DNA of 64,000 nt, taken from the IMG/VR virus record IMGVR_UViG_3300017951_000010, positions 27,412 to 91,411 of that record, one strand, 5' to 3'. The stretch comes from a virus. Under the pieces are notes generated by a model, which saw only the letters and a list, made by a program, of their open reading frames with translations, was not told where the DNA came from and did not search any database. The stretch's first letter is position 1. Each line of letters opens with the position of its first letter. A program made the translations under genes and the position numbers. Of the stretch, positions 34,875 to 58,242 are shown one piece after another.

Positions 34875-34926
34875 TCTACGCAGATAAATATGTTTGCTCA
34901 AGGCAACAACAGGCAAACATAGGCAA

Positions 34927-36618
34927 ATGAAAGATAAGGAACTAAACGACATAACAAGGCTGTACGATAGATTTATTAGGCAATGCCCAGGCACAGAAGA
35001 ATACACGCAAAGGCTCGCTGAGGAAACTCGCATCATCCTTCAACTACGTTTCGTAGATTACTTCATACAAATATGTGACATCATTGCAATGACACGAGAC
35101 ATACCACACATGACACGTGGTTCGGCTGGTTCGTCATTGGTCTGTTACCTATTGGGCATAACAGATGTGGACCCAGTGGAGTGGGGCATACCCGTAGCAA
35201 GGTTCCTCAATCCCAACAGGGATGACCTACCTGATGTTGATATAGACTTTCCCCATCACAAGCAGGACGAGGTGATGCAAAGAATATTCAAACGTTGGCC
35301 GGGACGCAGTGCTAGAATATCTAACTACGTGCTCTATCAAGATAAGTCGGCAAGGCGTGAAGCGGCGAAACGTTTGGGTGTCAAGGGTAACCTACCCCGC
35401 AGGTTCACATATGATTCGTTAGGCATCGACGCCAAAGAGGCCAGACGTATCGAGAACAAATTGAAAGGTAAGAAAAGATGCATATCAAAACACTGCGGAG
35501 GAATACTGATGTTTCAAAGACAACTACCAAAAAGCCTGTTCACGGCGGAGAACCAAATACTACTAGACAAGAACGAAGTGGAGGACCTGGAACACCTCAA
35601 GGTGGACATTTTAGCCAATCGTGGTTTGTCGCAACTCATAGAGATAGATCCCATACGGAAACTGACAGACTATCCCGAAGAGGATTCCGCTACTTCGGAA
35701 CTTTTGTGCAGGGGAGATGTACTGGGAGTGACACAGGCAGAGAGTCCGGCCATGAGGAGACTGTTCAGGGCGATACAACCGAAGAGTAGGAAGGACTGTG
35801 TGTTCGCCACGGCACTGATAAGGCCCGTTGCCATATCAGGACGCAAGAAGGCCACCATGTTCCATGACTGGAGCAAGGAACGTATGAGTGATACTATTGT
35901 GTATGAGGATGATGCCATAGACAGGATCGCAGAGGTGCTGGACATAGACAAGTATGAGGCCGACATGTACAGACGTGCATTCGCCAAGAAGAACGAAGAA
36001 AAGATAATGGAGTTCATAACGAGACTGGGCGAGCATCCACGCAAGGACGAGATTATAACAATGCTACAGTCATTGTCAGGGTTTGGCCTGTGCAGGGCAC
36101 ACGCCGTTAACCTGGGAAGGTTGATATGGGCGTTGGCTTATCAAAAAGCACACAACAAAGAAAAATTTTGGAGATCTTGTTTAAAACACTGCCAGGGATC
36201 ATACAAGCGTTGGGTTTACAGGACAGAAGCCAAGCGTGTGGGCATAGAAGTAGTAACACCTAGCAAGTCCGACAAATGGGACACACCGGAGTACCAATAC
36301 AGGAAGTACGGTTGGTGGAGCCAGGATAATTTCATGCCAGGCATGTACGTGAAAGAACTTTATCTGGACAAAGTGGAGTTCGCAGGTATGATAGCCAACG
36401 GAAGAGTGTTCCGTAGCGACAAAGGTAGTTACGTGACGTTCCTGACGCTGGGCGTTGGTAATGGACAATACATAGATGTCACTATCAAACGAGCGTTTGC
36501 ATACAGTGATCATGATGTGGTGTGGGGACAGGGTACAATAAGGCACAGCAACAACTCGGACTATGTGGAGTGCTATGATTCAAAAGGTTTCCGTTTGGAA
36601 AAATTCAACAATAAGTAA
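34927..36618 (+). CDS. dnaE: compact DnaE-family DNA polymerase lacking the PHP domain
   Basis: RGSAGSSLVCYLLGITDVDP, RFLNPNRDDLPDVDIDF, SKHCGG, KVDIL, ALIRP, AHA, C-terminal OB-fold-like segment. Confidence 0.85.
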   Translation: MKDKELNDITRLYDRFIRQCPGTEEYTQRLAEETRIILQLRFVDYFIQICDIIAMTRDIPHMTRGSAGSSLVCYLLGITDVDPVEWGIPVARFLNPNRDDLPDVDIDFPHHKQDEVMQRIFKRWPGRSARISNYVLYQDKSARREAAKRLGVKGNLPRRFTYDSLGIDAKEARRIENKLKGKKRCISKHCGGILMFQRQLPKSLFTAENQILLDKNEVEDLEHLKVDILANRGLSQLIEIDPIRKLTDYPEEDSATSELLCRGDVLGVTQAESPAMRRLFRAIQPKSRKDCVFATALIRPVAISGRKKATMFHDWSKERMSDTIVYEDDAIDRIAEVLDIDKYEADMYRRAFAKKNEEKIMEFITRLGEHPRKDEIITMLQSLSGFGLCRAHAVNLGRLIWALAYQKAHNKEKFWRSCLKHCQGSYKRWVYRTEAKRVGIEVVTPSKSDKWDTPEYQYRKYGWWSQDNFMPGMYVKELYLDKVEFAGMIANGRVFRSDKGSYVTFLTLGVGNGQYIDVTIKRAFAYSDHDVVWGQGTIRHSNNSDYVECYDSKGFRLEKFNNK

Positions 36619-36743: not shown

Positions 36744-36772
36744 TTGACTTATTGTTATAGAACAAATAATAT
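36744..36772 (+). promoter_or_regulatory. sigma70-type promoter of the ABC transporter operon
   Basis: TTGACT 36744-36749, 17-nt spacer, TAATAT 36767-36772; SD AAGGAG before ATG 36798. Confidence 0.6.
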
Positions 36773-36797
36773 GTGAAAACTTATATAAGGAGAATAA

Positions 36798-38054
36798 ATG
36801 AAAAAAATCATAATTTCAATAATTTCCTTTCTAGCATTAATTTGCATGCCTGTAATGGGTTTGGCAAAGGATGTAAAGATAGGAGTGATATATCCGCTGA
36901 CAGGGTCATCTGCACAGATTGGTAAGGATGCTGTTGCGGCAGTGAATACTGCTTTGGATATTATCAACAACAGCCATGACATACCAGGCATGCCTCTGGC
37001 AAAGAACAAAGGACTAAAAGGTCTTAACGGAGCCAATGTCAGCATAGTTGTGGGTGACCATACAGGAAAACCAGACGTTGGTGTCAGTGAGACTGAAAAG
37101 ATGCTGAACAAAGATGGTGTCCACGCCATGTATGGTGCATACTTTAGTTCAGTGGTAGCCGCGGCTAGCACAGTGACGGAAAGAGCAGGAATACCATTTG
37201 TAAATGGAGATTCTGCATCACCTAAACTAACATCGAGAGGTCTGAAATACTTTTTTAGAGTTGGGCCACACGATGGAATGTTTACTCAGTTGATGTTCGA
37301 ATTCATAAAGGACTTCAACAAGAAAAACAATGCAAACCTGAACACATTGGGTATCATACACGAAGACACACTTTGGGGTTCAGACAGTGGATCAACTCAA
37401 AACAAGATGGCCAAAGAACAAGGTTTGAACGTTGTTGAGAAAATCAGTTACAAGGCGTCTACCACGACGTTGACATCTGAAGTACAGAAACTGAAGGCAT
37501 CAAATCCAGATGTAACTCTTCCGTCTCAGTATACCGCAGATGCATTCTTGTTCATGAACACAGCCAAGGAGTTGGATTACAATCCTAAATTGTTAATCGC
37601 CCAGAACGCTGGATACGTCGACCCAACATTTATTTCAACAATGGGTGACAAGGCAGAGGGCGTGATTTCAAGATCACCTTTCAACACTGATCTAGCAAAG
37701 ACCATACCAATGATAGGAACCATAAATGAGATCTTCAAGAAACACTCAGGCGGTAGAGATCTGTCTGATGTTCCAGCGAGAGCATTTACTGGATTCATGG
37801 CCCTTGCTGTTGCAATAGACAACGCGGGCTCGACAGATCCTGATAAGATCAGACAGGCTCTTGTGGATCTAGACATTCCAGGCGAAGCATTGATAGTACC
37901 ATACAGAGGTGTCAAGTTTGGTCCAGACGGGCAAAACTCGGCAGTGAGAGGTGTGCTGATGCAGGTTCAAAACGGAAAATACTGTACTGTATATCCTTAT
38001 GAACTAGCGGCTTGTGACCTTGTGTATCCTATGCCAACTTGGGATCAAAAATAA
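36798..38054 (+). CDS. HAAT/Liv-family ABC transporter substrate-binding protein
   Basis: Signal peptide, VKIGVIYPLTG, GAYFSS, YFFRVGP, EDTLWG. Confidence 0.93.
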   Translation: MKKIIISIISFLALICMPVMGLAKDVKIGVIYPLTGSSAQIGKDAVAAVNTALDIINNSHDIPGMPLAKNKGLKGLNGANVSIVVGDHTGKPDVGVSETEKMLNKDGVHAMYGAYFSSVVAAASTVTERAGIPFVNGDSASPKLTSRGLKYFFRVGPHDGMFTQLMFEFIKDFNKKNNANLNTLGIIHEDTLWGSDSGSTQNKMAKEQGLNVVEKISYKASTTTLTSEVQKLKASNPDVTLPSQYTADAFLFMNTAKELDYNPKLLIAQNAGYVDPTFISTMGDKAEGVISRSPFNTDLAKTIPMIGTINEIFKKHSGGRDLSDVPARAFTGFMALAVAIDNAGSTDPDKIRQALVDLDIPGEALIVPYRGVKFGPDGQNSAVRGVLMQVQNGKYCTVYPYELAACDLVYPMPTWDQK

Positions 38055-38065
38055 CAACACCAAAC

Positions 38066-38095
38066 TTCGAGGCGTAGGCGTCGCGACGCCTCGAA
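38066..38095 (+). terminator. intercistronic stem-loop after the binding-protein gene (attenuator or mRNA stabiliser)
   Basis: TTCGAGGCGT 38066-38075 / ACGCCTCGAA 38086-38095. Confidence 0.6.
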
Positions 38096-38111
38096 TTCAT
38101 ATTTTCATACA

Positions 38112-38978
38112 ATGGGCACTGATATCATTATACAGGCAATCGTAGCAGGACTGATGATGGGACTGATATATGCCTTGATAGCGGCGGGCCTCAGTTTGAT
38201 TTTTGGATTAATGGAGATTGTAAATTTCGCTCACGGCGAACACCTTATGCTGTCCATGTTTACAACATTCTGGTTGTGGTCATTGTTCGGCCTGGATCCT
38301 TTACATTCAATTCCGGTAACTGTTTTGCTGATGGCATTCTGTGGTATAATCACACATTACTTCTTGATACGTTACATATTGAAAGCGAAGATGTTGATAC
38401 AGATATGTGCAACCTTTGGGTTGTCTATATTCATGAGATCATTGGCGCAACTTTTGTGGACACCAGATTACAGACACGTGTCCAATCCGATTCTGGAAGG
38501 CAGGCTCGAAATAGGTAACATATACATCGGACAACCACAACTGTTCGCCAGCATGGTTTGCCTACTGGCTTTCGTAGGACTCTACTGGTTCGTAAACAGA
38601 ACTGACACAGGGCTGGCAATACAGGCAACTTCACAGGACAGGCATGCCGCAGAAATCCTGGGTATACCATCTAATAAAATGTTCGCACTGGGGTGGGCCA
38701 TAGGCCTAGGCTGTGTTGCTGTTGCTGGTTCAATGATGATGAACTACTTTGCTGTTTTCACAGACGTTGGTACCAACTTTGCCCTATTTGCCTTTGTTGC
38801 GGTTGCCCTCGGCGGTTTCGGTAGCATTATCGGCTGTCTATATGCGGGCATCATAATAGGCCTTGTAGAGTCACTGGGCGGCCTGCTGATAGACCCTTCG
38901 TTTAAATTACTGTACATTTTTGCCATATACCTCATAGTTGTGATTTACAGACCGCAGGGTTTGTTCGGGAGATACTGA
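38112..38978 (+). CDS. livH: Liv-type ABC permease
   Basis: YALIAAGLSLIFG...VNFAHG, ALGGFGS; multi-TM. Confidence 0.92.
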   Translation: MGTDIIIQAIVAGLMMGLIYALIAAGLSLIFGLMEIVNFAHGEHLMLSMFTTFWLWSLFGLDPLHSIPVTVLLMAFCGIITHYFLIRYILKAKMLIQICATFGLSIFMRSLAQLLWTPDYRHVSNPILEGRLEIGNIYIGQPQLFASMVCLLAFVGLYWFVNRTDTGLAIQATSQDRHAAEILGIPSNKMFALGWAIGLGCVAVAGSMMMNYFAVFTDVGTNFALFAFVAVALGGFGSIIGCLYAGIIIGLVESLGGLLIDPSFKLLYIFAIYLIVVIYRPQGLFGRY

Positions 38979-39985
38979 TGAGCAACGCACTGTCACAAGC
39001 GAAGTCAGAACCAATTTACAACACCAACGGAAAAATTGCATTCTCAATATTGTGTACTGTGATTCTACTTGCGTTCCTGCCTGTAATTGGCATTAACAAT
39101 TTTTACCTACATTTGTTTATCATGTTATTCATGCACAGTGTGATGGCGCAATCATGGAACATCATCGCCGGCTTTTCAGGACAGATAAGTCTGGGACATG
39201 GATTATTTTTTGGTATAGGTGCTTACGCTACATCATTCCTCTACACCGAATACGCAATAACACCCTGGATCGGTATAATATTCGGCATGGCGGTGTCGGG
39301 TGTATTGGCAGTTCTCATAGGTGTTCCTATGTTGCGATTACACGGTCACTACTTTGCCATAGCGACATTATTGATAGCAATCAGTTTCTCATTGTTTTTC
39401 AGACGATGGGATCTTGTCGGAGCGGCATCTGGACTCTGGATCACAATGACAGATACAGATTCATGGATGGCACTTCAGTTCCATTCAAGTAAAGTTCCAT
39501 ACTACTATATTTTCTTATCATTCTTCATTGCTAGTTTCCTCATGACGTGGATATTGAACAGATCCAAACTAGGTTATAGGTTGAAAGCAGTACGAGATGA
39601 TCAACAGGCGGCGGCCAGCATCGGAATAGATGTGTCACGTCATAAGATATTGGCCTACGTGATTTCGGCGATGATGATGTCTCCAATGGGAAGTCTGTTC
39701 GCACAGTACATACTCATAATTGACCCTGCGACAGTGTTCAATATAGAATTTTCAATCGTGGTGCTTTTAATTACAGTGCTGGGAGGCATTGGAAGCGTGT
39801 GGGGGCCTTTGATAGGCACTGCTATCCTGATTCCGATCTCCGAATACACTAGGATATACCTAGGCGGGACCGGAGGAGCAGTTGACCTTATACTCTACGG
39901 ATTGATACTGATGCTGATATGTGTGTTCAGACCAACAGGTTTGATATCATTACTACCTAACAAAGTATTACAAAGGAAAAAATGA
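38978..39985 (+). CDS. livM: Liv-type ABC permease
   Basis: WNIIAGFSGQISLGHG, GHYFAIAT, AVRDD, VLGGIG. Confidence 0.92.
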   Translation: MSNALSQAKSEPIYNTNGKIAFSILCTVILLAFLPVIGINNFYLHLFIMLFMHSVMAQSWNIIAGFSGQISLGHGLFFGIGAYATSFLYTEYAITPWIGIIFGMAVSGVLAVLIGVPMLRLHGHYFAIATLLIAISFSLFFRRWDLVGAASGLWITMTDTDSWMALQFHSSKVPYYYIFLSFFIASFLMTWILNRSKLGYRLKAVRDDQQAAASIGIDVSRHKILAYVISAMMMSPMGSLFAQYILIIDPATVFNIEFSIVVLLITVLGGIGSVWGPLIGTAILIPISEYTRIYLGGTGGAVDLILYGLILMLICVFRPTGLISLLPNKVLQRKK

Positions 39986-40704
39986 AAATATTGAAGGTAT
40001 CCGATCTAAGTAAATCATTTGGTGGCATCAAAGCCAACAGTGAGATATCATTCGATGTAGAACAAGGAAGCATTCTGGGAGTTATTGGACCCAACGGTGC
40101 CGGTAAATCAACACTGTTCGATTTGATAACTGGATACACAAAAGCAGACTCAGGACGGGTTGAATTCTTTGGCAAGGACATATCCAATATGAGGCCAGAC
40201 AGAGTAAGCAGTCTGGGTATAGGAAGAACTTTCCAAAAACTTAAACCGTTTGCGGATCAAACTCTGCTTGAGAATGTGATGATAGGGTGCTTCGTAAATG
40301 CAACAACCATGAAGAACGCAAGGAACAGGGCACTGGAGATTATTGACTTTGTTGACCTAATAGACAAGAGATATCATTATGCTAGAGAACTTTCAACAGG
40401 TCAAAGAAAAAGACTTGAGATGGCCAGGGCCATGGCCATAGAGCCAAAGTTACTGCTAATGGATGAAGTGACGGGCGGCGTGGATCAGAAAACGATCCCA
40501 GGCCTGGTGGAGTTAATTAAGAAAATGAAGAAGACCGGAGTTACGATTATAACCATTGAGCACAACATCAACATCATAATGGAAATCTCAGACAACATCC
40601 TTGCTTTAGATCAAGGCGAAAGGATTGCGTACGGCACACCGACTCAGATACAGAATAACAAAAAGGTAGTCGACTCCTACCTAGGAACCTATGATGCTAA
40701 TTGA
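39982..40704 (+). CDS. livG: Liv-type ABC ATP-binding subunit
   Basis: GPNGAGKST, RTFQ, LLLMDE, IEH. Confidence 0.93.
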   Translation: MKILKVSDLSKSFGGIKANSEISFDVEQGSILGVIGPNGAGKSTLFDLITGYTKADSGRVEFFGKDISNMRPDRVSSLGIGRTFQKLKPFADQTLLENVMIGCFVNATTMKNARNRALEIIDFVDLIDKRYHYARELSTGQRKRLEMARAMAIEPKLLLMDEVTGGVDQKTIPGLVELIKKMKKTGVTIITIEHNINIIMEISDNILALDQGERIAYGTPTQIQNNKKVVDSYLGTYDAN

Positions 40705-41401
40705 TATCAAAAACATTGACGTACTTTATGATGATTACCAAGTGATATGGAACGTTTCGATGAATGTCAAACAAGGTGAGATAGTTGCGTTGCTGGGTCC
40801 GAATGGTTCAGGTAAGAGCACTATACTAAACACAATCAGCAACTTGGTTCCTCATAGGAAGGGAAGCATACACTTTGATGGGCAACTTATTTCAAACGTT
40901 CCAACACATCAAAGGACGTCTTTAGGTATTTCACACGTGCTTGAAAGAAGAAGAGTTTTTCCACACCTTACTGTAATTCAGAACTTGATGCTCGGAGCAT
41001 GGCACTCAAAGGCCAAAGAAAAATCTCAAATTTCTCTTGCTAAAATTTTCAAAATATTTCCAAAACTTCAAGTACGAAAAAATCAATTGGCTAGAACCAT
41101 GTCCGGTGGGGAACAACAGACTCTAGCAATAGCAAGGGGATTAATGGGACTACCTAAATTGCTGATGGTGGATGAGCCATTCCTTGGACTGTCTCCAATC
41201 GTAATGAAAGACTTGATCAAAGTATTCAGGAACATCGCAGATGAAGGAATATCAATTTTATTCGTTGAACAGAATGTTAGATTAGCACTAAACATGGCTG
41301 ACCGAGGATACATTCTGGAAAGCGGAAGATTAGTAATTGACGGTGAATCAAAGGATCTGATTGATAACGAAAAAGTTACGAAAGTATTTTTAGGGAATTA
41401 G
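40694..41401 (+). CDS. livF: Liv-type ABC ATP-binding subunit
   Basis: GPNGSGKST, MSGGEQQ, VDEPFLGLSP, VEQN. Confidence 0.93.
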   Translation: MLIDIKNIDVLYDDYQVIWNVSMNVKQGEIVALLGPNGSGKSTILNTISNLVPHRKGSIHFDGQLISNVPTHQRTSLGISHVLERRRVFPHLTVIQNLMLGAWHSKAKEKSQISLAKIFKIFPKLQVRKNQLARTMSGGEQQTLAIARGLMGLPKLLMVDEPFLGLSPIVMKDLIKVFRNIADEGISILFVEQNVRLALNMADRGYILESGRLVIDGESKDLIDNEKVTKVFLGN

Positions 41402-42187
41402 TTACAAAGCCGCAAGATCATTATTCAGCAGATCTGTTATCAACATACTCCCCGGATAATGTGTAATACAAAAATCAGGTTTCGAGTCTTGAAGCACTGA
41501 CTGTGGCGTTACACCACATGCCCAAAATATCGGTATCTCTCCATCCTCAAGCGGCCTCGGTGCATCTCCATAATCCGGTTTCATTATATCATCGATTCCA
41601 ATCTTAGCGGGATCTCCTAAATGAATGGGTGCGCCGTGCACCGCAGGAAATCTCGAACTAATCTGTATTGATCTTATTGCGTCCTTGGCAGTAAGTGGCC
41701 TCATGGAGACAACAACCTTTCCGCTAAACTTACCTGCGGGTTTGCAGTCAATCGATGTCCTGTACATAGGCACTACCGTGTCATTCTCTATGTGTTGCAT
41801 GGGTATGCCGGCTTCTAATAAAGGTAACTCGAAAGACATAGAACATCCAAGAACAAAAACTGTTAAGTCATCGTTCCAATATTTTTTGATATCAAATGGT
41901 TCGTCGATTATCTTTCCTTTTTCCCACACCCTGTATCTTGGCACATCTGTTCTGATGTCGATGTCACCTAGGTCTTGTAGCATTGGATTTCCTTTGGTTC
42001 CAAATCCTATCAACGGGCAAGGCTTTGGGTTCTTCTGACAGAAAGATGCGAAGTCCATTGCGTAGTCACTTGGTAATATGCAAACGTTCCCTTGGACGTA
42101 CTTTCCCGCGGTACCGGCAGTTTGTTTAGTATACTGATTTTTCCTTATTACTTGTCTTGCCTCTGATGGATTTTGAATATCAAGCAT
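41402..42187 (-). CDS. DUF1445 putative hydro-lyase / D-glutamate cyclase-like protein
   Basis: [53 protein letters not shown]; ATG 42187 preferred. Confidence 0.9.
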
Positions 42188-42271: not shown

Positions 42272-43108
42272 ATGAAACAATTCAACGCAGAATTTCTTGA
42301 AACAGATTGGCGAAGAAACAGACCACAAAAATTTGGATTCAAGATGTCGAACGAAAAGACTTTGGCAAAACATCAACGTCTCCTTCCGCCCGAAATGGTA
42401 AAAGGAAAATCAATACTGGACATAGGATCATTCATGTCACAGACAGGGGATTGGTGTTTGAATCACGGTGCCACAAAATACACTGGTGTCGAAATAATAA
42501 AAGAATTTGCAGACAGGGGCATAGAACTGATGGAGAAGTATCACTCAGGAGAGAATTGGAACATCATACATTCGAGTCTTGAAGATTACTTTGCCACTCA
42601 CAACGAGAAATATGATATCATATTCTCATGGGGAGTATCATTCAGCCAAATAGATCACGCATGGTTCATCAAAAATCTCTGTGAACGCTGTGATCACATG
42701 GCCCTCAATTGGAGGCATCCAAAGGTGATGTGGAACGACAACAACGATTACATTCCAGATGAGATGTGGAAGAAGTTTGAATATGATATCCCTTACCAAG
42801 AATGGCAAGAGGACGTAATGACACAGACAGCAGGTAAGAATGCAAGTGTATACTGTTCCTCTGTACACACAAGCATGAAGGCAGTGCAACTGCTTATGAA
42901 GATGAATGGTTTTTCATCAAGCACAGACAGTTATGAGTACTTCAAGAAGGTCATGCCTGAAGACATGGGCATGTTCAGACGAAAAGACAGACCCGGCTTC
43001 TTTGTGGTCGAAGGCACTAGAGACGAGGCAGTGGCACGTCCAAACATATTCAACGAGATGGTTGAAAACCCAAAGGTGTGGAATGAAAAGTGGATCGACT
43101 GGTGTTAA
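42272..43108 (+). CDS. class I SAM-dependent methyltransferase-like protein
   Basis: KSILDIGS, TGVE, YDIIF; TAAATA 42261-42266 upstream. Confidence 0.7.
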   Translation: MKQFNAEFLETDWRRNRPQKFGFKMSNEKTLAKHQRLLPPEMVKGKSILDIGSFMSQTGDWCLNHGATKYTGVEIIKEFADRGIELMEKYHSGENWNIIHSSLEDYFATHNEKYDIIFSWGVSFSQIDHAWFIKNLCERCDHMALNWRHPKVMWNDNNDYIPDEMWKKFEYDIPYQEWQEDVMTQTAGKNASVYCSSVHTSMKAVQLLMKMNGFSSSTDSYEYFKKVMPEDMGMFRRKDRPGFFVVEGTRDEAVARPNIFNEMVENPKVWNEKWIDWC

Positions 43109-43769
43109 GGACTGGCAGTTTGATGAGACGATAGCAAAGTCCTTCGTTGAACATGCCAGGAAGCACATACCAAACTACGAGCAAGTCATAGACAAGTGTG
43201 CCAACTATTGTGAACTCAACCTGCCCAAAGATGCAAAGATCATTGATGTTGGCTGTGCCACAGGGCACACATTAAGCAGACTGCACGGTCGCGGGTTTAC
43301 TGATCTATATGGCGTTGACAACAGTGAAAGCATGGTAGAACAGGCACAACAAGGTATAGCAACTTACACAGTGAGTGACAAGTTTCCAGAAGGACAGTTT
43401 GACATGATACTGTGTAACTGGACCTTACATTTTATGAAAGACAAGATATCTTATCTGACCTCTATGCGTGACGGACTATCTGAAAACGGGACAATGATTA
43501 TATCCGAAAAGATCAGTAAAGATCCAGATCGTGTTAAATTGTATCATGACCAAAAAAAGAGGCTGGGGGTATCTGAAGAAGAAATAAAACGAAAACAAAA
43601 ACAATTAGAGAACGTCATGTTCATAGACTCGCTAGATTGGTACCAACGCATCTTAAAAACATTGGGTTTTGAAGTGACAGTCATAGATGCTGATTGGTGT
43701 TTCGCGACGTTCTTGTGTAGAAAAGAAAAAGACTCATGGATGCAATGGACATACCACACTGGGTGGTAG
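43083..43769 (+). CDS. CmoA-like SAM-dependent transferase
   Basis: WQFDE, HIPNY, DVGCATG, GVDNS, WTLHF, ISEK, LENVM. Confidence 0.75.
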   Translation: MKSGSTGVKDWQFDETIAKSFVEHARKHIPNYEQVIDKCANYCELNLPKDAKIIDVGCATGHTLSRLHGRGFTDLYGVDNSESMVEQAQQGIATYTVSDKFPEGQFDMILCNWTLHFMKDKISYLTSMRDGLSENGTMIISEKISKDPDRVKLYHDQKKRLGVSEEEIKRKQKQLENVMFIDSLDWYQRILKTLGFEVTVIDADWCFATFLCRKEKDSWMQWTYHTGW

Positions 43770-44824
43770 GAGACAAACACATCTATAATCAACTAGAGGC
43801 ATGGGAAGAAATTGCGGCCTCGGGCAAAGCATACAGGTTTTACTTCTACGATCATGTGTACAACCGTTACGACTGGTCCGTAGAACCAAAACAGTCGTGG
43901 GATGAGTTAGTGTTACACAGATGCCTGCAACTGCGGCAGAAATACAGAAAACTATCTTTGTGGTACAGCGGTGGACGAGATTCTCACCACGTGTTGAGAT
44001 CGTTTGCCAAAAATAATATACCAATAGACGAGTTACTACTTTTACATTGGAAGATGAATCCAGTACGTAATCACGAATATTATAACTGGCAGTTGCCTCT
44101 GGCAAAAAAATACAAAGAGGTCAACCCTAATGTTAAGATAACGACAGTGGATGTTGACTCAAAAGTTTACAACAAATACTATGATTCGAAAGGACCAGAT
44201 TCTAGATATTTCTCTTCCGACGATGGGCTCTATCAACCAAGTGATTTCGAGTGGCACACAGTAAATCTCTGCAATATTTCTGACAGCAGTACCGGGGTAA
44301 TTGTGGCCCTTGAAAAGCCATACCTTTATCTAGATAACGGAAAACTGTATCACAGATTTGTTGACAAACCGTTTGAGCTGTACAGAGGCTCCATTAGTGA
44401 ATTTGAAATGTTCCACTATGCCCCTGACCTGCCAGAGTTATATATCAAGCAGTGCCACATATTGGCCAACTACATAAAACAGAAATACCCAAATAAGGAC
44501 AAGCAATTCTTTGATGAGTTCATAGAGAACCCCCATGGTTCTTATTACAGTGAATACTGTACGGCGTGTGGACGAGGTCCGGCCATCGATGAGGACGAAC
44601 CGTGCAACAACGGAAAAAACAAGTACAATGGGTCACATAAAATATTTGACAACATCATAGACATTGCCCAAAAAGACAATTTTAAATCCTACAAGATATG
44701 GAAGGATGGTATGGAATATTGGCACAAAAAAGTGCCGGAGGCATTTCAACAGAAGCAGAATTACAGACAGGGTGGAACCACAGGAATAGTAAGCACATCT
44801 AAGTTCATTATGGACTATGCCTAA
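43736..44824 (+). CDS. PP-loop (adenine nucleotide alpha hydrolase)-like protein
   Basis: LWYSGGRDS motif; KQCH. Confidence 0.55.
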   Translation: MDAMDIPHWVVGDKHIYNQLEAWEEIAASGKAYRFYFYDHVYNRYDWSVEPKQSWDELVLHRCLQLRQKYRKLSLWYSGGRDSHHVLRSFAKNNIPIDELLLLHWKMNPVRNHEYYNWQLPLAKKYKEVNPNVKITTVDVDSKVYNKYYDSKGPDSRYFSSDDGLYQPSDFEWHTVNLCNISDSSTGVIVALEKPYLYLDNGKLYHRFVDKPFELYRGSISEFEMFHYAPDLPELYIKQCHILANYIKQKYPNKDKQFFDEFIENPHGSYYSEYCTACGRGPAIDEDEPCNNGKNKYNGSHKIFDNIIDIAQKDNFKSYKIWKDGMEYWHKKVPEAFQQKQNYRQGGTTGIVSTSKFIMDYA

Positions 44825-44844
44825 ATACAAACAAAAGAAAAATC

Positions 44845-45540
44845 ATGCCAAAATATATAAAGACAGTCAAGACAAAAGAACAACTGGCAGTACTGCTTCA
44901 AGGCATTGCCGGCAAGGGTAGAGAACTTATACAGCAATGGATCGATATCGATCCTATCTTTGTTGGAGAGTTGACATCAGCAAATTACGAAATGAGTATC
45001 AAAAAGCATCTCATAGAATCTGTGAAACAGATTTCGATAGAAGGCCACTGGTGTGAGTTTGGAGTCAGAGAAGGAAGAAGTCTCCAATGGTTGATAAATG
45101 AGCATCCTAATACTGTAATACATGCTTTTGACTCATGGAAAGGATTACCAGAGGATTGGAACCACGGAACAGGCACAGTGGCCGACATGTCTTGTGAACC
45201 TCCTGTTGTGCCAGAACACATACAACTACACAAAGGATGGTTCAAAGACACATTACCTATCTGGAAACAAAAAAATGACGGACCAATCGCATTCCTCCAC
45301 ATGGACGCCGATATATACTCATCTACCAAAGAAGTCTTGGTATCATTGGATGAACAAATTGTTCCTGGAACTGTTATAACTTTTGATGAATTTTGCAATT
45401 TTAGACTTTCCGGAAAGATGAGCAAATGGCAGGACCAAGAATTCAGAGCGTTAACAGAATGGCTAGATGAAAAGCAAAGGGAGGTTGAACCTTTAAATCG
45501 AAACTGGGCGTATCAGGCGAGTTGTGTAGTCGTTAGTTGA
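44845..45540 (+). CDS. TylF/MycF-like O-methyltransferase
   Basis: EFGVREG, FDSWKGLPE, KGWFKDTL, HMDADIYSS, FDE. Confidence 0.85.
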   Translation: MPKYIKTVKTKEQLAVLLQGIAGKGRELIQQWIDIDPIFVGELTSANYEMSIKKHLIESVKQISIEGHWCEFGVREGRSLQWLINEHPNTVIHAFDSWKGLPEDWNHGTGTVADMSCEPPVVPEHIQLHKGWFKDTLPIWKQKNDGPIAFLHMDADIYSSTKEVLVSLDEQIVPGTVITFDEFCNFRLSGKMSKWQDQEFRALTEWLDEKQREVEPLNRNWAYQASCVVVS

Positions 45541-46263
45541 TCTGCTTTCATGTACAAAAATAAAATCCGCATCATGGGGATAGCCTTCATATGATGTGTC
45601 ACGCACAGCATCTTGCACTGTTTCGCATTTCATTATTTTCTTGTTCTTGATAAAATACCAATATGTTTGGTAGCCTAGGTCTGTAAGATATTGGAAAATG
45701 TTTTCTAAAGGATATTTTGTGTTTTGATCCCATATCTCAACCATAAGTGTCGGCCAAGATGTTTTCAAAAGTGCTTCTGCACCTTTCAACACATCGAGTT
45801 CAGTACCTTCGGTATCTATCTTGATAAGTCCAATATTGGAATGTTTTTGGTCGTCTAACTTGACCACATCCACCGTGATCGGTTTACCCCATCCTGGATT
45901 AAGAAATCCATTTTGTGAAAGCCTCTTGTCGTCTATGTAGAAAGTTTCTTTGCCTTGGAAGTTGCTTACTGCAAGATTATAAACCGAGACATTACTGAAT
46001 TTTTCTTTTAATTTGATTGTCTGTTCATAACTGTGACTGGGTTCATATGAATGCACGTGTTTAAATTTTTTCGCGAAGAACGTTGACATCAAACCCGCCG
46101 CGGCTCCGACATCAATTGCTTCTTCATTCTTATCAATGAGTCCCATGTTTTCTATTGCAGTGAGAGTTCCGTTAGTGACTTTGCCGTATGACTTTTCTGT
46201 GAACACACGCCTATCTAAAACAGATTTTGGTAAATCTAAATCTTTGTAAAACATAACCCCCAT
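45493..46263 (-). CDS. FkbM-family methyltransferase
   Basis: IDVGAAAG, YEP, IKIDTEGTE. Confidence 0.85.
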   Translation of the reverse strand: MGVMFYKDLDLPKSVLDRRVFTEKSYGKVTNGTLTAIENMGLIDKNEEAIDVGAAAGLMSTFFAKKFKHVHSYEPSHSYEQTIKLKEKFSNVSVYNLAVSNFQGKETFYIDDKRLSQNGFLNPGWGKPITVDVVKLDDQKHSNIGLIKIDTEGTELDVLKGAEALLKTSWPTLMVEIWDQNTKYPLENIFQYLTDLGYQTYWYFIKNKKIMKCETVQDAVRDTSYEGYPHDADFIFVHESRSTNDYTTRLIRPVSI

Positions 46264-46847
46264 TCTCGCAAATACATTTTCGGAACCTGCTTATTGTTTA
46301 ATAATGGATCGCGCCAATAAACCGACTTAATCATATTTAAATTTGATTTTTCCTTCACTATTCTAGTTAGCGGTTGATTTAGCTCGTACCCTATTTCTTC
46401 AAACTTGTCTATCCAGTACGGTGCTTCCTGGCAGTTGACATGATGGTGGCCGGGCCAACCAATTGGGCACCATGTAAAAATAACATATTTGGCTCTCTTG
46501 AATATGTCCATGTAGTTGTGCACCTTGCTTCCGTCTATGTGCTCGCTTACACTGACGCTCCAAATTAAGTCAATCTGATCAGGTATCTCTTTTATTTTAA
46601 CCACACCGTCGTTCTCAAAATCATGTTTGAAAAGGTTATCACATATCGGATTGACCAAGGCGTCACTATCTCCTTCGATGCCATAAGCAGTGTAGCCGTG
46701 TTGCTCTTTAGCGAATGCCACATTTAATCCCACACCACAACCAACATCCAACATTGTCTTGCAGTCTAGTTGGGTCCTGAAATAATCGAGGAGGTATGGA
46801 CTCACGTGTCCTCTGCTCCAATGTCCGCCTGTGTTGTTGTTTGCCAT
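46236..46847 (-). CDS. class I SAM-dependent methyltransferase
   Basis: LDVGCGVG, GIEG, SEHI, GHHHVNCQ. Confidence 0.8.
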   Translation of the reverse strand: MANNNTGGHWSRGHVSPYLLDYFRTQLDCKTMLDVGCGVGLNVAFAKEQHGYTAYGIEGDSDALVNPICDNLFKHDFENDGVVKIKEIPDQIDLIWSVSVSEHIDGSKVHNYMDIFKRAKYVIFTWCPIGWPGHHHVNCQEAPYWIDKFEEIGYELNQPLTRIVKEKSNLNMIKSVYWRDPLLNNKQVPKMYLREWGLCFTKI

Positions 46848-47932
46848 TATTTGAATTGAAGTTGCAGGTTGATTCTCATGCCTTCGTCCACACGCCCACC
46901 AGTGTGCATAGTGTATCCAGGATCGAACAGTGCAAAGTTTCCTGTGTTGTTTGTTGTCAATTTGACAATATTATCTGTGATCAATTTCTGCTCGGACGTT
47001 CCATCTAGCAGGTTCCTTCCAAACTGGTAGTTGATCCTCAATCTCTTTGGAAGTCTGAAGATAGCACTCCTGTGCAGTTTGTCCTCCATGTAATTTCCAA
47101 TTGCGTTTGCCCTGCCCCATACGGATTCAAAGGCATCGTGCTTCCACCTATTACTGGTCTTGACAAACCATATAGGTCCTTGTTTTTCTGTAACTTCTCC
47201 CAAATAGAAAGCACCTTTCAGCAAATCAAATTTTGGGTCTAAGTGTAGGTTGGTTGTCACTGGATGTTTCTGCGACACTGAATTGATATCTCTGTACTGT
47301 TGGAAGATATGACTGTCCGTCGGATAGGAAACGTGTAAGGTGACTTTCTTAACACTCATGCTCTTGCCCATGTATGAAGATGCCGCATCTAGTATTCCTT
47401 GCTTCTCGAATTCTTCATTTAACATGTCCTGCACCTTGCTACCATTTTCGGGTTTTGGGTTTGCTCTGTCGTATGTCCCTATTTGAGTTATTTGATCTTG
47501 TTTGTTTAATAAAAAGTCAATGTCCGATTGGAGGAGACTCTTGACCTTGTGTCCTATGTCGCTATATCCAAATGTGACACCCTGCTCTGCCAGGGTGTGA
47601 AAGTGTTTGTTGTCAGAATGCTTGTCAAAGAAGTTATGTCTATTTGTGGTTATTTGATAAGTGTACTGCCTGCCTACTTTTTTTCGCCAATGGTTTATAA
47701 TTTCCTGTTCTCCCTCCTGCAGAGGCATCTGTGTCTTTGAAAGCTCTACAAGTTCATCCACGATCATTAGGAATTGGTTCATTCCTTTTTTCTTCATGAA
47801 CATATCCTCACACCGATTGACAAGTGCATCTGATTCGAGATTGTCATCGAAACGTTGTTCTTGTCTTACTTCGGGGAGGTCTGATACATCGGGGAAAACA
47901 AATCCGTGATCGGCTATTTCTTGATAATTCAT
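46847..47932 (-). CDS. 2OG-Fe(II)/phytanoyl-CoA dioxygenase-like protein
   Basis: LHLD, GP, MHTGG, RINLQ; ATG 47932 lies 8 nt after a minus-strand TAAATA. Confidence 0.6.
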   Translation of the reverse strand: MNYQEIADHGFVFPDVSDLPEVRQEQRFDDNLESDALVNRCEDMFMKKKGMNQFLMIVDELVELSKTQMPLQEGEQEIINHWRKKVGRQYTYQITTNRHNFFDKHSDNKHFHTLAEQGVTFGYSDIGHKVKSLLQSDIDFLLNKQDQITQIGTYDRANPKPENGSKVQDMLNEEFEKQGILDAASSYMGKSMSVKKVTLHVSYPTDSHIFQQYRDINSVSQKHPVTTNLHLDPKFDLLKGAFYLGEVTEKQGPIWFVKTSNRWKHDAFESVWGRANAIGNYMEDKLHRSAIFRLPKRLRINYQFGRNLLDGTSEQKLITDNIVKLTTNNTGNFALFDPGYTMHTGGRVDEGMRINLQLQFK

Positions 47933-47940
47933 TATATGGG

Positions 47941-47956
47941 TATTTAACAATAAATA
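47941..47956. promoter_or_regulatory. back-to-back late-type promoter boxes
   Basis: TATTTA-ACAA-TAAATA between divergent ATGs at 47932 (-) and 47962 (+). Confidence 0.65.
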
Positions 47957-49942: not shown

Positions 49943-50825
49943 GTTCCCAGCACTCCCCAGATTCAAATTCTGCAACGCTCCATTGGCAGTGGGCAATATT
50001 GTTTGTCCATTGCTTCTTATCACCCCTGTATGGATTGTTGATTTCATCAAGGCTATTACTACTTACATCATAGACCATACTTCCTGTGTCTAGCGCAACA
50101 CTTGGAACTCCGTTGATTACGGCATCTATACCTGTACCGGAGGTGTAAGTTACTGTGCACCATGCGTCCTTGAATAGTTCTTGCACAGGTACAAAATTCT
50201 TTTGGGTAAGATCACAGTCCTGCCATATGACATTAGGCAGGCTCAATATTTCTTGTTTCAGTTTGTTGTGTAGTGTTGTCTTCCTGTACAGCGGATGTGG
50301 TCTCACAATTATAGTTCTATCTGTTTTAGCCCTCAATTCTTTTGCTACATTGTTGGTCCATTGGAAAATATCTAAACCCCGTAGGCTGGCATCTCCTACC
50401 TTTTGCATACACAACAAAACGTAGTCTCCGTCTGCCTTCCACACACACTCCGGATCATATCCGTTTCTCTCAAACACTTTTTTTGACCTATCAGCCGTTA
50501 TGTGTTCAAATCCCCACTTCGCGTCATCCCAAAGGAATCCATTAACTCCTACCCTGAACTCCGAATGGAACGCTGTTGATATGGGCCTGCCAATCAGTTG
50601 TGTTTCCAACTGAACATATGGCATTCCACTTTCTATCACACGACCTTTGCCTTGATGTGCTTTCCTACCTCTGCTTTTCTTATAACTGCCATATATCACG
50701 GCACAGTCATACTTGTGAGCGTTGTCACTGGTGGTAATCTCGCCACCACACCCTTTGGCAAAGGATACCAACACGTTCCTGAATTGGTCATAGTTGGCAG
50801 AATCTTCTATTACAGCAATTCGCAT
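49920..50825 (-). CDS. capsule-synthesis-like GT-B glycosyltransferase paralog
   Basis: CMQKVGD, VRPHP, VTYTSGTGIDAVINGVP, IAHCQW; ATG 50825 lies 5 nt after a minus-strand TAAATA. Confidence 0.65.
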   Translation of the reverse strand: MRIAVIEDSANYDQFRNVLVSFAKGCGGEITTSDNAHKYDCAVIYGSYKKSRGRKAHQGKGRVIESGMPYVQLETQLIGRPISTAFHSEFRVGVNGFLWDDAKWGFEHITADRSKKVFERNGYDPECVWKADGDYVLLCMQKVGDASLRGLDIFQWTNNVAKELRAKTDRTIIVRPHPLYRKTTLHNKLKQEILSLPNVIWQDCDLTQKNFVPVQELFKDAWCTVTYTSGTGIDAVINGVPSVALDTGSMVYDVSSNSLDEINNPYRGDKKQWTNNIAHCQWSVAEFESGECWEHVRKSIR

Positions 50826-50849
50826 GCGGGTATTTACGTAGCGGAGCGA

Positions 50850-50907
50850 AAGCGTAAATTTTACCAAACGTTTTTTCAAAAAATACGCGGAAGCGTAAAA
50901 GCGTAAA
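50850..50907. repeat. three AAGCGTAAA direct repeats flanking a T6-C-A6 dyad
   Basis: Copies at 50850, 50891 and 50899; TTTTTTCAAAAAA at 50871-50883. Confidence 0.6.
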
Positions 50908-50956
50908 GCCGGTCTGACCCGAACGATAATTAACACTTAACAATGGGAGACACAGC

Positions 50957-51127
50957 ATGGGCATACACTACGACTACAAGAGCACCCGAGGTTCCAAGAA
51001 GATGCAGAAGCAACAGGAACGTGAACAGCGCAGGCGATCCAGACGCTCCCGGGGGGAGATCCCCAAACAGAAACAGGACGAGAACAGGCCACTGACACTG
51101 GACATGATCACGGACCCCAACAAATGA
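50957..51127 (+). CDS. small basic protein (56 aa)
   Basis: MGIHYDYKSTRGSKKMQKQQEREQRRRSRR...; SD GGGAGA; ATGA overlap with the next gene. Confidence 0.6.
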   Translation: MGIHYDYKSTRGSKKMQKQQEREQRRRSRRSRGEIPKQKQDENRPLTLDMITDPNK

Positions 51128-52155
51128 TCAATGAGAGATTATTCAATCACTACCGCATAGACACCCGCAAGGACCTACGGATAGGCAACAGTTGCCCCAG
51201 GCCCTTCGACACGGTGCTGATAGACAAGCAGGGATCCTGCTACGCCTGTGAGTGCCAGTCGTGGTTGCCACAGAGCATAGGCAACCTGCAGGTTAGGCCC
51301 CTGGCGGACATACTGGGCAGTGACATGCACAGGCACCTGCAGGGGTCCATAACGGACGGCACCTACAGGTACTGCAACGAGCACCAGTGCTCCTACATAC
51401 GGTCACAGAACGTGTTGCATGGCCAGCCGGATCGCATACGTCACCTGAGGCTGGCCATAGATGACAGTTGCAACCTGCGTTGTCCGAGTTGTAGGAAGGG
51501 CTTGATATTCCACAAGGAGGGCTCCGCGTACGACCTGGGCATACGCCTGGCCGACAGGATCAACGACTGGTTGCATGACTGTGAGGACCCGATGCAGGTG
51601 CACATAGGTTCCGATGGTGACCCGTTCGCGTCGCACGTGTACAGGCACTTCATGGAGCAGACACCACAACGGGACAACATCCGGTACAGCATACTGACCA
51701 ACGGACTGATGTTTCCGGAGTTCCACTCGCGGGTGCCCAACGTGATCGGCAACCTGCAGGAACTGGGAGTCAGCGTGGACGGCGCAACACAGGAGACCTA
51801 CGAGAAGTTGAGGCTCGGGGGCAAGTGGGAAAAGATACTGGAGGGGTTGGAATGCATGGCGGAGCAGAGACAGAAGCACGGCTTCAGGTTCATACTGCAC
51901 TTCGTGGTGCAGAAGGACAACTACCACGAGATGGAGGCCATGATAGACCTGGCGGAGCGGTTCGGGGCCGACCGAGTCTGGCTCAACAAGATCGAGGACT
52001 GGGGCACGACCGATGACTTCCACACACAGGACATCTGGCGGAGCCCGGAGTACCTGCGCAGGCTGGATGGCGTGCGGCAACGCATATGGCGGAGGGGTGA
52101 CCGGTTCATAGAGTGCCCCACGCTGTTGACCGAGAGCGAGAGGGCCCGACCGTGA
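51124..52155 (+). CDS. radical SAM protein with N-terminal twitch/SPASM-like Cys cluster
   Basis: CPRPF...CYACEC...YC...C, CNLRCPSC, GDPF, TNG, SVDG. Confidence 0.88.
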   Translation: MINERLFNHYRIDTRKDLRIGNSCPRPFDTVLIDKQGSCYACECQSWLPQSIGNLQVRPLADILGSDMHRHLQGSITDGTYRYCNEHQCSYIRSQNVLHGQPDRIRHLRLAIDDSCNLRCPSCRKGLIFHKEGSAYDLGIRLADRINDWLHDCEDPMQVHIGSDGDPFASHVYRHFMEQTPQRDNIRYSILTNGLMFPEFHSRVPNVIGNLQELGVSVDGATQETYEKLRLGGKWEKILEGLECMAEQRQKHGFRFILHFVVQKDNYHEMEAMIDLAERFGADRVWLNKIEDWGTTDDFHTQDIWRSPEYLRRLDGVRQRIWRRGDRFIECPTLLTESERARP

Positions 52156-52706
52156 AGTCCTACCACGTGTTGGGGTGCGGCCCACTGGCCGAGATACAGT
52201 CACACACAATGGACTACATCCACAACAGGAGACCGGAGATGCTGGACGAGAGCGACCTCTGGCACAAGGCCGACACGCCGGAGTTCCTGGGTGCGTGTGC
52301 GCCGTTGGTGCGCTGGACACGTGAACTGGGACTGCGGATCAGGGAAGTGGCCTTCACTGTGTCACACAGCGGCACGGTGGTCAACCCGCACATAGACGAG
52401 GCGCCGGTGCTGGCCAAAGTCAACGTGCCCATACTCAACACCCGACACACCTACAACAGGTGGTACGACGTGCCACAACAGGTCATGCAGGACCCCAGGC
52501 ACAGGCGCACCAACAGTTTTGGGAGATCATACCACAGTTTCCAGGGAGTGGCACTGCGGCAGGTGGATGAACTGGAACTGACGTCACCCGCCGTGTTCAA
52601 CTCCGCCCGGGCACACGACATCGCGTTCACCGAGAGGTCCACTTACCCACGAGTGGTGCTGACCTGCATGTTCCACGATGAACCTAAAAAGTTCCTGGAG
52701 GCATGA
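52152..52706 (+). CDS. cupin/2OG-Fe(II) oxygenase-like protein
   Basis: PHID, NVPILN, AHDI, RVVL; GTG start overlapping the previous stop. Confidence 0.55.
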   Translation: MKSYHVLGCGPLAEIQSHTMDYIHNRRPEMLDESDLWHKADTPEFLGACAPLVRWTRELGLRIREVAFTVSHSGTVVNPHIDEAPVLAKVNVPILNTRHTYNRWYDVPQQVMQDPRHRRTNSFGRSYHSFQGVALRQVDELELTSPAVFNSARAHDIAFTERSTYPRVVLTCMFHDEPKKFLEA

Positions 52707-52726
52707 CCGCTCGTAAATATTTCCAA

Positions 52727-53236
52727 ATGAAGATAGCCATCACAGGACACAAGAGAGGCATAGGACGTCAGTTGGACCTACAGCTCACGGCACTGGGACA
52801 CCGGGTGGTGGGCATATCGAGGAGCGATGGGGAGAACATCCGCAGGGTGGCGCACACCGCTACACTGATAGAGGACTGTGACATGTTCATCAACAACGCC
52901 GTGAGTGCCTACGCCCAGACCGAGTTGCTGTTCGAGGTGTGGCACAGGTGGGCAGAGCTCAAGGAGGCGCACCACATCTGGAACATATCCACGAGGCTGT
53001 GCCTGGAGACACAGGACAGGCAGATCAATGGTCTTACCATGCGGGAGAGCATGGAGTACAGGAATCGCAAGATGAGCCTGGAACTGGCACACAGTCAACT
53101 GGCCGCGCAGGCCAGCAACATAAAGATGAAATTAATCAGGCCACCGGGCGTGAGGACCCAGGCGTTCAGTGATCCCAATGGCCTGTCCGCGGAGGAATAC
53201 GTGCATGGACTCCTGGAGGAGCAGGGACTCAAATGA
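52727..53236 (+). CDS. short SDR-like Rossmann protein
   Basis: ITGHKRGIG, FINNA, NIS, YRNRK; ATG lies 7 nt after TAAATA 52714-52719. Confidence 0.7.
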   Translation: MKIAITGHKRGIGRQLDLQLTALGHRVVGISRSDGENIRRVAHTATLIEDCDMFINNAVSAYAQTELLFEVWHRWAELKEAHHIWNISTRLCLETQDRQINGLTMRESMEYRNRKMSLELAHSQLAAQASNIKMKLIRPPGVRTQAFSDPNGLSAEEYVHGLLEEQGLK

Positions 53237-54375: not shown

Positions 54376-54886
54376 AATAACAAAAATCAGAGACGAATAC
54401 GTCTTCCCAATATTTAAGAATGGCTATACTAGCATCAGAAACCATGCAGACCAGAACAGATGCAGATGGTTTATCAACGAGCAGTGCAGACGGGCAGACA
54501 CCATCACTGTGATAATCAGAGAACCAAGGCAACGTTACATATCTGGGGTGCATACGGTTGTAGAACTTCTGCGCCGTAAACACAAAAACATCGACCACGA
54601 GACAGTTGTGACCCTCATTGAAAATTACAATTTCTCCAACGAACATTTCCAACCACAATGGGCCTGGATGCTTAGGCTGAAAGAATATTTCAGTGGCAAC
54701 ATCAAATTGGAGGGAATGGTACATCTAGACCACTTGACTGGACTACACGACGGTCCCTTCATCCCAGAGATGACCAACGCCCAGAGAAAAATACTAGAGG
54801 CAATGACGCCACCGGATCTATCCAATGACTACAAACTCTACAGACAGATAGGCACAACAGGGAGTATAGCAGATGTATTGTCCTAG
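54368..54886 (+). CDS. sulfotransferase-like protein
   Basis: PIFKNGYTS, IREPRQRYISG, EHFQPQ. Confidence 0.6.
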   Translation: MIKITKIRDEYVFPIFKNGYTSIRNHADQNRCRWFINEQCRRADTITVIIREPRQRYISGVHTVVELLRRKHKNIDHETVVTLIENYNFSNEHFQPQWAWMLRLKEYFSGNIKLEGMVHLDHLTGLHDGPFIPEMTNAQRKILEAMTPPDLSNDYKLYRQIGTTGSIADVLS

Positions 54887-58001: not shown

Positions 58002-58078
58002 TGGTGGACCGGAAAGGATTCGAACCTATGGCCTTGAGTTCCGCAAACTCACGCTCTATCCAACTGAGCTACCGGTCC
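58002..58078 (-). tRNA. tRNA-Arg(GCG)
   Basis: GGACCGG acceptor, A20 in the D-loop, anticodon arm TGAGT-TT GCG GA-ACTCA, TTCGAAT, encoded CCA; one U-U mismatch in the T-stem. Confidence 0.88.
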
Positions 58079-58083
58079 ATTAA

Positions 58084-58160
58084 TGGCCTCCGGGGAGGGA
58101 TTCGAACCCCCGACCCCAAGTTTAGGAAACTCGTATTCTATCCAACTGAACTACCCGGAG
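58084..58160 (-). tRNA. tRNA-Arg(CCU)
   Basis: CTCCGGG/CCCGGAG acceptor, A20, loop TT CCT AA, encoded CCA. Confidence 0.92.
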
Positions 58161-58168
58161 GTCTCGTG

Positions 58169-58242
58169 TGGTGGAGGATAGGAGAGTCGAACTCCTGACT
58201 CATCCATGCCATGGATGCGTGATCCCACTTCACCAATCCCCC
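58169..58242 (-). tRNA. tRNA-Ala(GGC)
   Basis: G3:U70 pair, loop AT GGC AT (A32-U38), TTCGACT, encoded CCA. Confidence 0.92.

Follow-up and report, generated by a model that had tools for sequence, protein, structure and literature searches.

A complete importer orthologous to the SAR11 L-pyroglutamate system, carried on a T4-like phage contig

The closest described counterpart of the genes considered here is a locus of 'Candidatus Pelagibacter ubique' HTCC1062. Its solute-binding protein, SAR11_0655, is represented by a structure with bound L-pyroglutamate (PDB 8WCH) and binds this ligand with a dissociation constant below 5 nM; the system has been termed a new class of ATP-binding cassette (ABC) transporter, and homologues of pxpABC occur at the same locus (Clifton et al. 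2024, PMC11485210). Viruses have been reported to carry single transporter components, such as PstS and efflux ATPases (e.g. PMC12379486 for PstS). We describe a cassette of six genes, encoding the five parts of an ABC importer and an enzyme of the DUF1445 family, in a 64,000-nt stretch of viral DNA, hereafter the window, which comprises positions 27,412 to 91,411 of IMG/VR record IMGVR_UViG_3300017951_000010. The window is the final 64 kb of this one 91,411-base viral record, which is linear according to IMG/VR and has an estimated completeness of ~16% (CheckV). We propose, with a probability of about 0.68, that this is an auxiliary metabolic cassette, captured by an ancestor of large T4-like marine phages from a SAR11-type pyroglutamate (5-oxoproline) locus.

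The cassette and the HTCC1062 L-pyroglutamate locus (PMC11485210) have all six gene families in common; both place the overlapping genes in the order permease-permease-ATPase-ATPase and show a zero-gap convergent junction with the DUF1445 gene. The cassette differs from that locus in being carried by a phage, in an inverted binding-protein gene that lies behind a consensus TTGACA promoter and is followed by a hairpin, in the lack of the pxpABC and tetratricopeptide-repeat (TPR) genes, in a roughly doubled G+C content at third codon positions (GC3), and in the replacement of four binding-protein residues that are invariant in cells. There is also a likeness to the PstS proteins of cyanophages and pelagimyophages (PMC12379486), which are likewise host-derived, high-affinity uptake parts in marine T4-like phages and are presumed to raise nutrient uptake. 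PstS, however, is a binding protein alone and needs the membrane parts of the host, whereas here all five parts are phage-encoded, together with a linked enzyme in this phage.

The six genes are intact and span positions 36798-42187 of the window, as judged from the open-reading-frame listing and from Pfam and NCBIfam profile matches that are near full-length; an earlier reading, made from the letters of the window without database searches (the sequence-only reading), had placed five transporter genes and a DUF1445 gene at these positions. The solute-binding protein (36798..38054, + strand; 418 residues with a signal peptide; Peripla_BP_6, E 5e-50) is the SAR11_0655 orthologue, and it matched PDB 8WCH with an E value of 2e-215 and ~78% identity over residues 22-418, with zero indels. 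Permease 1, which is LivH/UrtB-like (38112..38978, +; 288 residues), covers positions 2-268 of the 269 in the BPD_transp_2 profile and is 83-87% identical to Pelagibacteraceae copies, and permease 2, which is LivM/UrtC-like (38978..39985, +; 335 residues), covers positions 6-268 of the same profile at 70-76% identity. The LivG/UrtD-like ATPase 1 (39982..40704, +; 240 residues) has an ABC_tran domain and a BCA_ABC_TP_C tail domain and is 78-83% identical to its Pelagibacteraceae counterparts; the LivF/UrtE-like ATPase 2 (40691..41401, +; 236 residues; ABC_tran) is 77-83% identical to its own, and the stop and start codons of the two ATPase genes overlap. All five components are full length, and each is orthologous to its SAR11 counterpart. 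By orthology, the importer is classed as a SAR11_0655-type L-pyroglutamate system, and neither as a Liv system nor as an undescribed one.

Two other identities were tried and rejected. For a LIV-I branched-chain importer all components scored below the NCBIfam cut-offs (LivJ 71 against 477, LivH 96 against 379, LivM 94 against 366, LivG 186 against 362 and LivF 206 against 441), and for a urea importer there was no UrtA match, while UrtB, UrtC, UrtD and UrtE were all under their NCBIfam cut-offs. The label 'Liv-type', which the sequence-only reading had given to the importer, thus fails as a statement of function on the 71 bits of the LivJ model, and its description of the whole as an undescribed system does not stand either, the six genes being orthologues of a published SAR11 locus. 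Pyroglutamate, which was among the substrates that it had offered, is the shown ligand of the closest characterized homologue (SAR11_0655 in 8WCH, at 78% identity). Uptake of D-glutamate, or drainage of the host D-glutamate pool, is not supported, no result here bearing on it.

We compared the cassette with cellular loci through a scan of one genome per species in 185,579 species, which returned 80 loci, mostly from Pelagibacteraceae and also from Fonsibacter, Hyphomicrobiales and some Gammaproteobacteria. All six genes are held in a single arrangement, with the same junction, by 55 of the 80 (tblastn). In this arrangement the DUF1445 gene is forward and converges on the reverse-strand genes for ATPase 2, ATPase 1, permease 2 and permease 1, and the binding-protein gene is divergent from that of permease 1. 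HTCC8051 may serve as an example: its DUF1445 gene runs to 6550 and the ATPase 2 gene starts at 6551, which is the same zero-gap junction. The genes pxpC, pxpB, pxpA and TPR are found upstream, the last two of them co-directional with DUF1445. The six genes of the window show about 72-86% amino acid identity to the SAR11 cluster orthologues, and the best cellular match is no higher. From permease 1 to DUF1445 the phage block is collinear with the host cluster, including the zero-gap convergent junction; therefore, the block is a copy of the host cluster, and only the binding-protein gene was turned. All 15 phage copies have that gene co-directional with the operon, an arrangement seen in none of the 80 cellular loci.

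The phage copies were recovered as follows. A second IMG/VR contig of 65.5 kb (G001, of which L001 is the 21-kb stretch round the cassette) carries the five importer genes at 77-92% amino acid and ~75% nucleotide identity, between unrelated flanks; IMG/VR labels this contig a provirus. A search with a degenerate DNA pattern that fits only the phage allele, and that matched none of the 80 cellular loci nor other fetched loci, brought in 13 more metagenome contigs, all co-directional and of 38-43% GC, for a total of 15 phage contigs. The flanks match the window phage in L087, L091, L092 and L097, and match G001 in L088-L090, L094, L095, L098 and L099. Each gene tree unites the phage copies in a single clade. 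Its SH-like approximate likelihood-ratio (SH-aLRT) support is 100 in the binding-protein tree, which has seven phage rows, 95 for permease 1, 99 for permease 2, 89 for ATPase 1 and 98 for ATPase 2. Phylogeny against SAR11 homologues had been suggested with the sequence-only reading, and the tree of the binding protein places the phage clade as sister to the main surface-ocean Pelagibacteraceae, within a group of all Pelagibacteraceae copies (SH-aLRT 94 and 100). Between the window and G001 the importer genes have a ratio of nonsynonymous to synonymous substitution rates (dN/dS) of 0.015-0.07, with dS saturated, and the phage copies have a GC3 of 0.35-0.51, as compared with 0.15-0.21 in SAR11. 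These observations indicate a single old capture followed by long residence in phages, with selection retaining the importer; across the 15 contigs, and in two kinds of flank, its genes are retained under strong purifying selection. The exact binding protein was found on 17 contigs and the exact DUF1445 protein on 16 (JGI, ENA and Logan); a DNA search of the phage collection gave no match.

The cassette is embedded in a T4-like phage contig, with phage features on both sides, much as the sequence-only reading had it. To the left lie genes for TerL, a gp32-like single-stranded DNA-binding protein, UvsX, a DnaB-like helicase, Nth and a DNA polymerase III (Pol III) alpha subunit (Pfam, NCBIfam and phage-family scans), and the TerL is T4-type and 55% identical to that of PA5oct-type jumbo phages. 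To the right, ten open reading frames scanned against PHROG gave zero hallmark phage matches. The contig contains 50 TAAATA hexamers, 23 of them placed 4-9 nt before an ATG (reading frames of at least 60 codons), which is the pattern of T4-like late promoters. Eight of the 23 sites are right of the cassette, at 42272, 47932(-), 47962, 50825(-), 52727, 60946(-), 61283 and 62492(-), the one at 42272 directly after the DUF1445 gene, and the remaining 15 are further left in the contig, so that the motif flanks the cassette on both sides; the importer operon itself is without it. A four-tRNA array, Arg-GCG, Arg-CCT, Ala-GGC and Thr-TGT, occupies 58002-58390 on the minus strand. Its members read CGC/CGU, AGG, GCC/GCU and ACA, and three of the four favor G- or C-ending codons; we infer that such a set would suit a phage of 43% GC in an AT-rich host. 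In an independent metagenome contig, L092, the order is DnaB, Nth, cassette, orf278, methyltransferase, orf362, Pol III alpha and radical-SAM genes, the proteins being 64-95% identical to those of the window. By the late motif, the tRNA array and the synteny with L092, the phage genome continues right of the cassette.

Several features of the cassette bear on its expression. A putative sigma-70-type promoter, TTGACT-17-TAATAT, was located at 36744..36772 (+) by motif scan and conservation. As a lone motif it is at chance level (14 matches found, 15.2 expected). Its -35 (TTGAC[AT]) and -10 (TAnAAT) elements, though, align in 15 of 15 phage copies, the consensus being TTGACA-17-TAnAAT, although the flanks have diverged, and we take the promoter as real because of this conservation. 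It is in this way that the promoter named in the sequence-only reading was borne out; the Shine-Dalgarno element that it had named could be read directly, as AAGGAG at 36788..36793 (+), 4 nt before the ATG, and AGGAG or AAGGA occurs at the same site in the other phage copies. The stem-loop that it had noted after the binding-protein gene, at 38066..38095 (+) between this gene and that of permease 1, has a predicted folding energy of -17.9 kcal/mol (z = -3.86), a value that none of 200 shuffled sequences reached. A weaker hairpin is present at the same place in L001. The hairpin presumably increases the amount of binding protein relative to that of the membrane parts.

The sixth gene (41402..42187, -) encodes a 261-residue putative hydro-lyase of the DUF1445/YcsI (PxpI) family, with a full-length domain match to PF07286 (208.5 bits, cut-off 25) and a match over positions 4-264 of 266 to NF003969, 'putative hydro-lyase' (398.6 bits, cut-off 324). 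It also matched PDB entries 3DB9 (E 1e-78) and 2PIF (E 5e-76). The longest frame opens at a GTG at 42244; the start was set at the ATG at 42187 from the 261-residue host orthologues, which is also where the sequence-only reading had put it. Equally accurate was its report of a tail-to-tail junction with no gap at 41401/41402, where the TAG of ATPase 2 (41399-41401) abuts the reverse-strand TAA (41402-41404). The protein is 76-85% identical to Pelagibacteraceae copies, which share the junction, and of the 106 columns with a conservation of at least 97% among 67 cellular homologues it keeps 105, the exception being V220I.

Two described systems are informative about this family. In the B. subtilis ycsFGI-kipIAR (pxp) operon, as in the cassette, a gene of the DUF1445 family is linked to 5-oxoproline metabolism; ycsI is located downstream of ycsG there, and pxpI is a name used for the kip region of B. 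subtilis. We take ycsI to be a DUF1445 protein, as the B. subtilis control match also suggests, and YcsI (UPF0317) is the JGI name of the DUF1445 homologues. Unlike that operon, the phage cassette is without oxoprolinase genes. The human D-glutamate cyclase DGLUCY, namesake of PF07286, has the same Pfam domain at full length; the phage protein, in contrast, falls in the bacterial model NF003969, and D-glutamate cyclase activity has been shown for the mammalian enzyme only. In the literature searched we found no assay of a bacterial DUF1445 member. The statement in the sequence-only reading that such genes adjoin 5-oxoprolinase and transporter genes in bacteria agrees with the SAR11 loci, in which pxpABC, the importer and DUF1445 stand together. 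In SAR11 the DUF1445 gene belongs to the pxpA operon, and the enzyme most likely acts on the imported lactam or on its D-form.

Taken together with the cellular arrangement, these features suggest the following course of events. The source would have been a cluster of the form pxpCB / pxpA-TPR-DUF1445 / ATPase-ATPase-permease-permease / binding protein in a SAR11-type alphaproteobacterium. In the phages the binding-protein gene has been turned to the direction of the operon, and it lies behind a consensus sigma-70 promoter and is followed by a hairpin. Host RNA polymerase would transcribe the operon early in infection, a timing we infer because there is a sigma-70-type promoter with a ribosome-binding site and no TAAATA late motif. 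The hairpin would favor an excess of binding protein, and the overlapping genes would preserve translational coupling. The products would form a complete high-affinity ABC importer in the envelope of the infected cell and boost the uptake from seawater of L-pyroglutamate or of a closely similar compound; PxpABC of the host would then open the ring to yield glutamate, from which phage synthesis in a nutrient-starved cell may draw nitrogen and carbon. DUF1445 would have been kept by this phage and lost by its relatives.

A number of observations weigh against capture from a pyroglutamate locus for such a use, and we gather them here. No pxpABC genes were found on the 91-kb contig, which gave no LamB_YcsF match and no tblastn match for pxpA, pxpB or pxpC; G001 likewise gave no LamB_YcsF match, and L001 no match for pxpA, pxpB or pxpC. 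The window contig and G001 are each estimated to be at most 20% complete, so that ring opening would be left to the host or to the 80% or more of the genome that lies outside the contig. The phage and SAR11 differ in GC content (43% and 30%, respectively). DUF1445 is absent from all three other phage contigs that reach past ATPase 2 (L092, L097 and G001), and the function of the importer in phages does not require it. Lastly, four of the phage-specific changes in the binding protein are non-conservative (T120V, T140A, T156G and S244Q) and fixed in all 15 phage copies, and its ligand or affinity may differ from that of SAR11_0655, as judged from these residues.

As regards DUF1445, the sequence-only reading was right that a complete importer and this enzyme occur together inside a phage. 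It had also treated the pairing as a phage module, and this part was not sustained: the junction is copied from the host cluster, and the three contigs just mentioned are without the enzyme. A DUF1445 search of viral contigs found no relative, and a 33-nt pattern across the ATPase/DUF1445 junction had no match in viral contigs, near-identical records possibly lying outside the collection searched. Among 5.8 billion protein clusters, one 90%-identity cluster contains the phage form, and the next nearest, at no more than 84%, match the identity of the SAR11 copies. Since DUF1445 occurs only in this phage population, the importer-enzyme pairing appears to be inherited and not a phage rule. The simplest reading, because the junction is that of the host, is that DUF1445 arrived with the original fragment and was then lost in other lineages. 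The gene may, less simply, have been recaptured at a later time by recombination with a host. The last 56 residues of ATPase 2 have a mean identity of 0.87 to SAR11 and 0.81 to the phage relatives, and the first 60 show the reverse, the difference amounting to ~3 residues; taken over its full length, ATPase 2 groups with the phage copies, and the GC3 of DUF1445 is 0.405.

A more radical alternative is that bacterial DNA was joined to phage DNA by chimeric assembly, by host contamination or at a prophage edge, and a chimeric join with host DNA was indeed among the outcomes that the sequence-only reading had named as fatal to it. The genes are of cellular type, G001 carries the provirus label, and the ten right-flank reading frames gave no match to a hallmark phage family, all of which would fit such a join. 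Yet the cassette has 42.6% GC and the rest of the contig 43.0%, its GC3 is far from the SAR11 values given above, and the best cellular identity across all of the species genomes scanned is only about 72-86%. Moreover, the gene order is phage-specific, the late motif and the tRNA array continue rightward, and L092 independently links DnaB, Nth, cassette, orf278, methyltransferase, orf362 and Pol III alpha. With composition, cellular identities of at most 86% and independent contigs all opposed to it, we regard a chimeric origin as extremely improbable. A further possibility is that the cassette is a neutral passenger, acquired accidentally and heading for decay, as might be supposed from the loss of DUF1445 in related phages and from the variation in cassette neighbors between contigs. 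This, too, we consider very improbable: every reading frame is intact, dN/dS is low over saturated dS, the consensus promoter and ribosome-binding site are conserved, and the genes were kept in two flank lineages long enough for a full compositional shift.

The alternative to which we give more thought accepts the same origin and holds that the importer was retuned to another ligand, such as D-pyroglutamate, another lactam or an amino-acid derivative, by remodeling of the binding pocket; DUF1445 would then process that ligand. Against 80 cellular orthologues, the binding protein of the window kept 124 of 132 cell-invariant columns, and seven phage-fixed changes fell on those 132. In the membrane and ATPase proteins such changes numbered 0 of 105 (permease 1), 2 of 87 (permease 2), 0 of 88 and 0 of 83, or 2 of 363 in total (Fisher p = 0.0018). 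Besides the four non-conservative changes, E161M, T274V, P37S and V38S occur at sites that are 95-99% conserved in cells. In an alignment to Atu2422 (3IP5), residues S117, T140, R154, D159, W193 and G194 correspond to S79, T102, R116, D121, Y150 and G151, which, according to PMC12965686, quoting Acher and Bertrand (2005), are positions of the eight-residue Venus-flytrap amino-acid motif in Atu2422 and the leucine-isoleucine-valine-binding protein (LIVBP). T140 aligns with Thr102 of LIVBP, a carboxylate-binding residue, and T140A therefore would remove the motif Thr/Ser, in so far as an alignment to distant relatives can place it; S117, R154 and D159 align with S79, R116 and D121 of LIVBP and Atu2422, and T120V, T156G, E161M and T274V are within 3 residues of motif positions. 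On the other side, the protein is 78% identical to 8WCH with no indels and with nearly all invariant columns kept, the placement in the pocket rests on distant relatives and not on the contacts in 8WCH, and the changes could tune affinity or docking with the ligand unchanged. We judge a retuned ligand to be unlikely, and L-pyroglutamate, or a compound much like it, to be the better candidate.

Two changes in permease 2, Q138S and Q142R, are fixed across 12 of 12 phage copies, at sites that are invariant in 74 cellular orthologues, and are the sole such changes outside the binding protein. They may have arisen as an adjustment of the permease to the changed binding protein, in which case they would favor a retuned importer. 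A related and broader idea is that the phages give the infected cell a transport ability that the host lacks, through a self-sufficient importer whose pocket has been retuned off L-pyroglutamate (T140A, T120V, T156G, E161M and S244Q) and which is here coupled to DUF1445; we hold this only tentatively, and on balance doubt it.

The surroundings of the cassette vary. A compact Pol III alpha gene (34894-36618) precedes the cassette here, and in L092 its counterpart (8853-10544; 95% identical protein) is found after orf362; in L097 the cassette adjoins homologues of the 58.5-62 kb region of the window. Therefore, the neighborhood of the cassette has been rearranged between related phages. In both cassette-bearing lineages the importer stands amid methyltransferase genes (FkbM, TylF-like and class I SAM) and radical-SAM genes (42272-47950 of the window; 9046-9672 and 16010-17434 of L001). 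The segment from 50000 to 54500 has 51-59% GC, compared with ~43% elsewhere, and extends over a radical-SAM/SPASM cluster (51124-52155 and 53233-54375, with others to 56952). Two of these radical-SAM proteins have the SPASM domain N-terminal to the radical-SAM core, which is the reverse of the usual order, and homologues of the radical-SAM/SPASM proteins occur on L092 at 64-65% identity.

What is new here is the carriage of the importer by phages, the cellular locus being already known. Among 50,697 phage records this binding-protein and permease family (HAAT-type) occurred in no cultured phage record; the matches consisted of unannotated human-faecal metagenomic fragments, two short unannotated phage-named records (2-3 kb) and misfiled bacterial records. 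In the literature searched, no phage was described as carrying every part of a multi-part importer. Here all five parts are kept in one operon, behind a strong promoter, under selection in many ocean phage contigs, which implies that in oligotrophic seawater phage production is limited by the capacity to take up one particular compound of dissolved organic nitrogen. The cassette would tie phages to pyroglutamate, a compound recognized only in 2024 as an uptake substrate of SAR11. The phage-specific changes in the binding protein may be viewed as a natural experiment on the retuning of ligand recognition in this family, and the locus provides a second, independent genomic argument for placing the DUF1445/YcsI enzymes in pyroglutamate metabolism.

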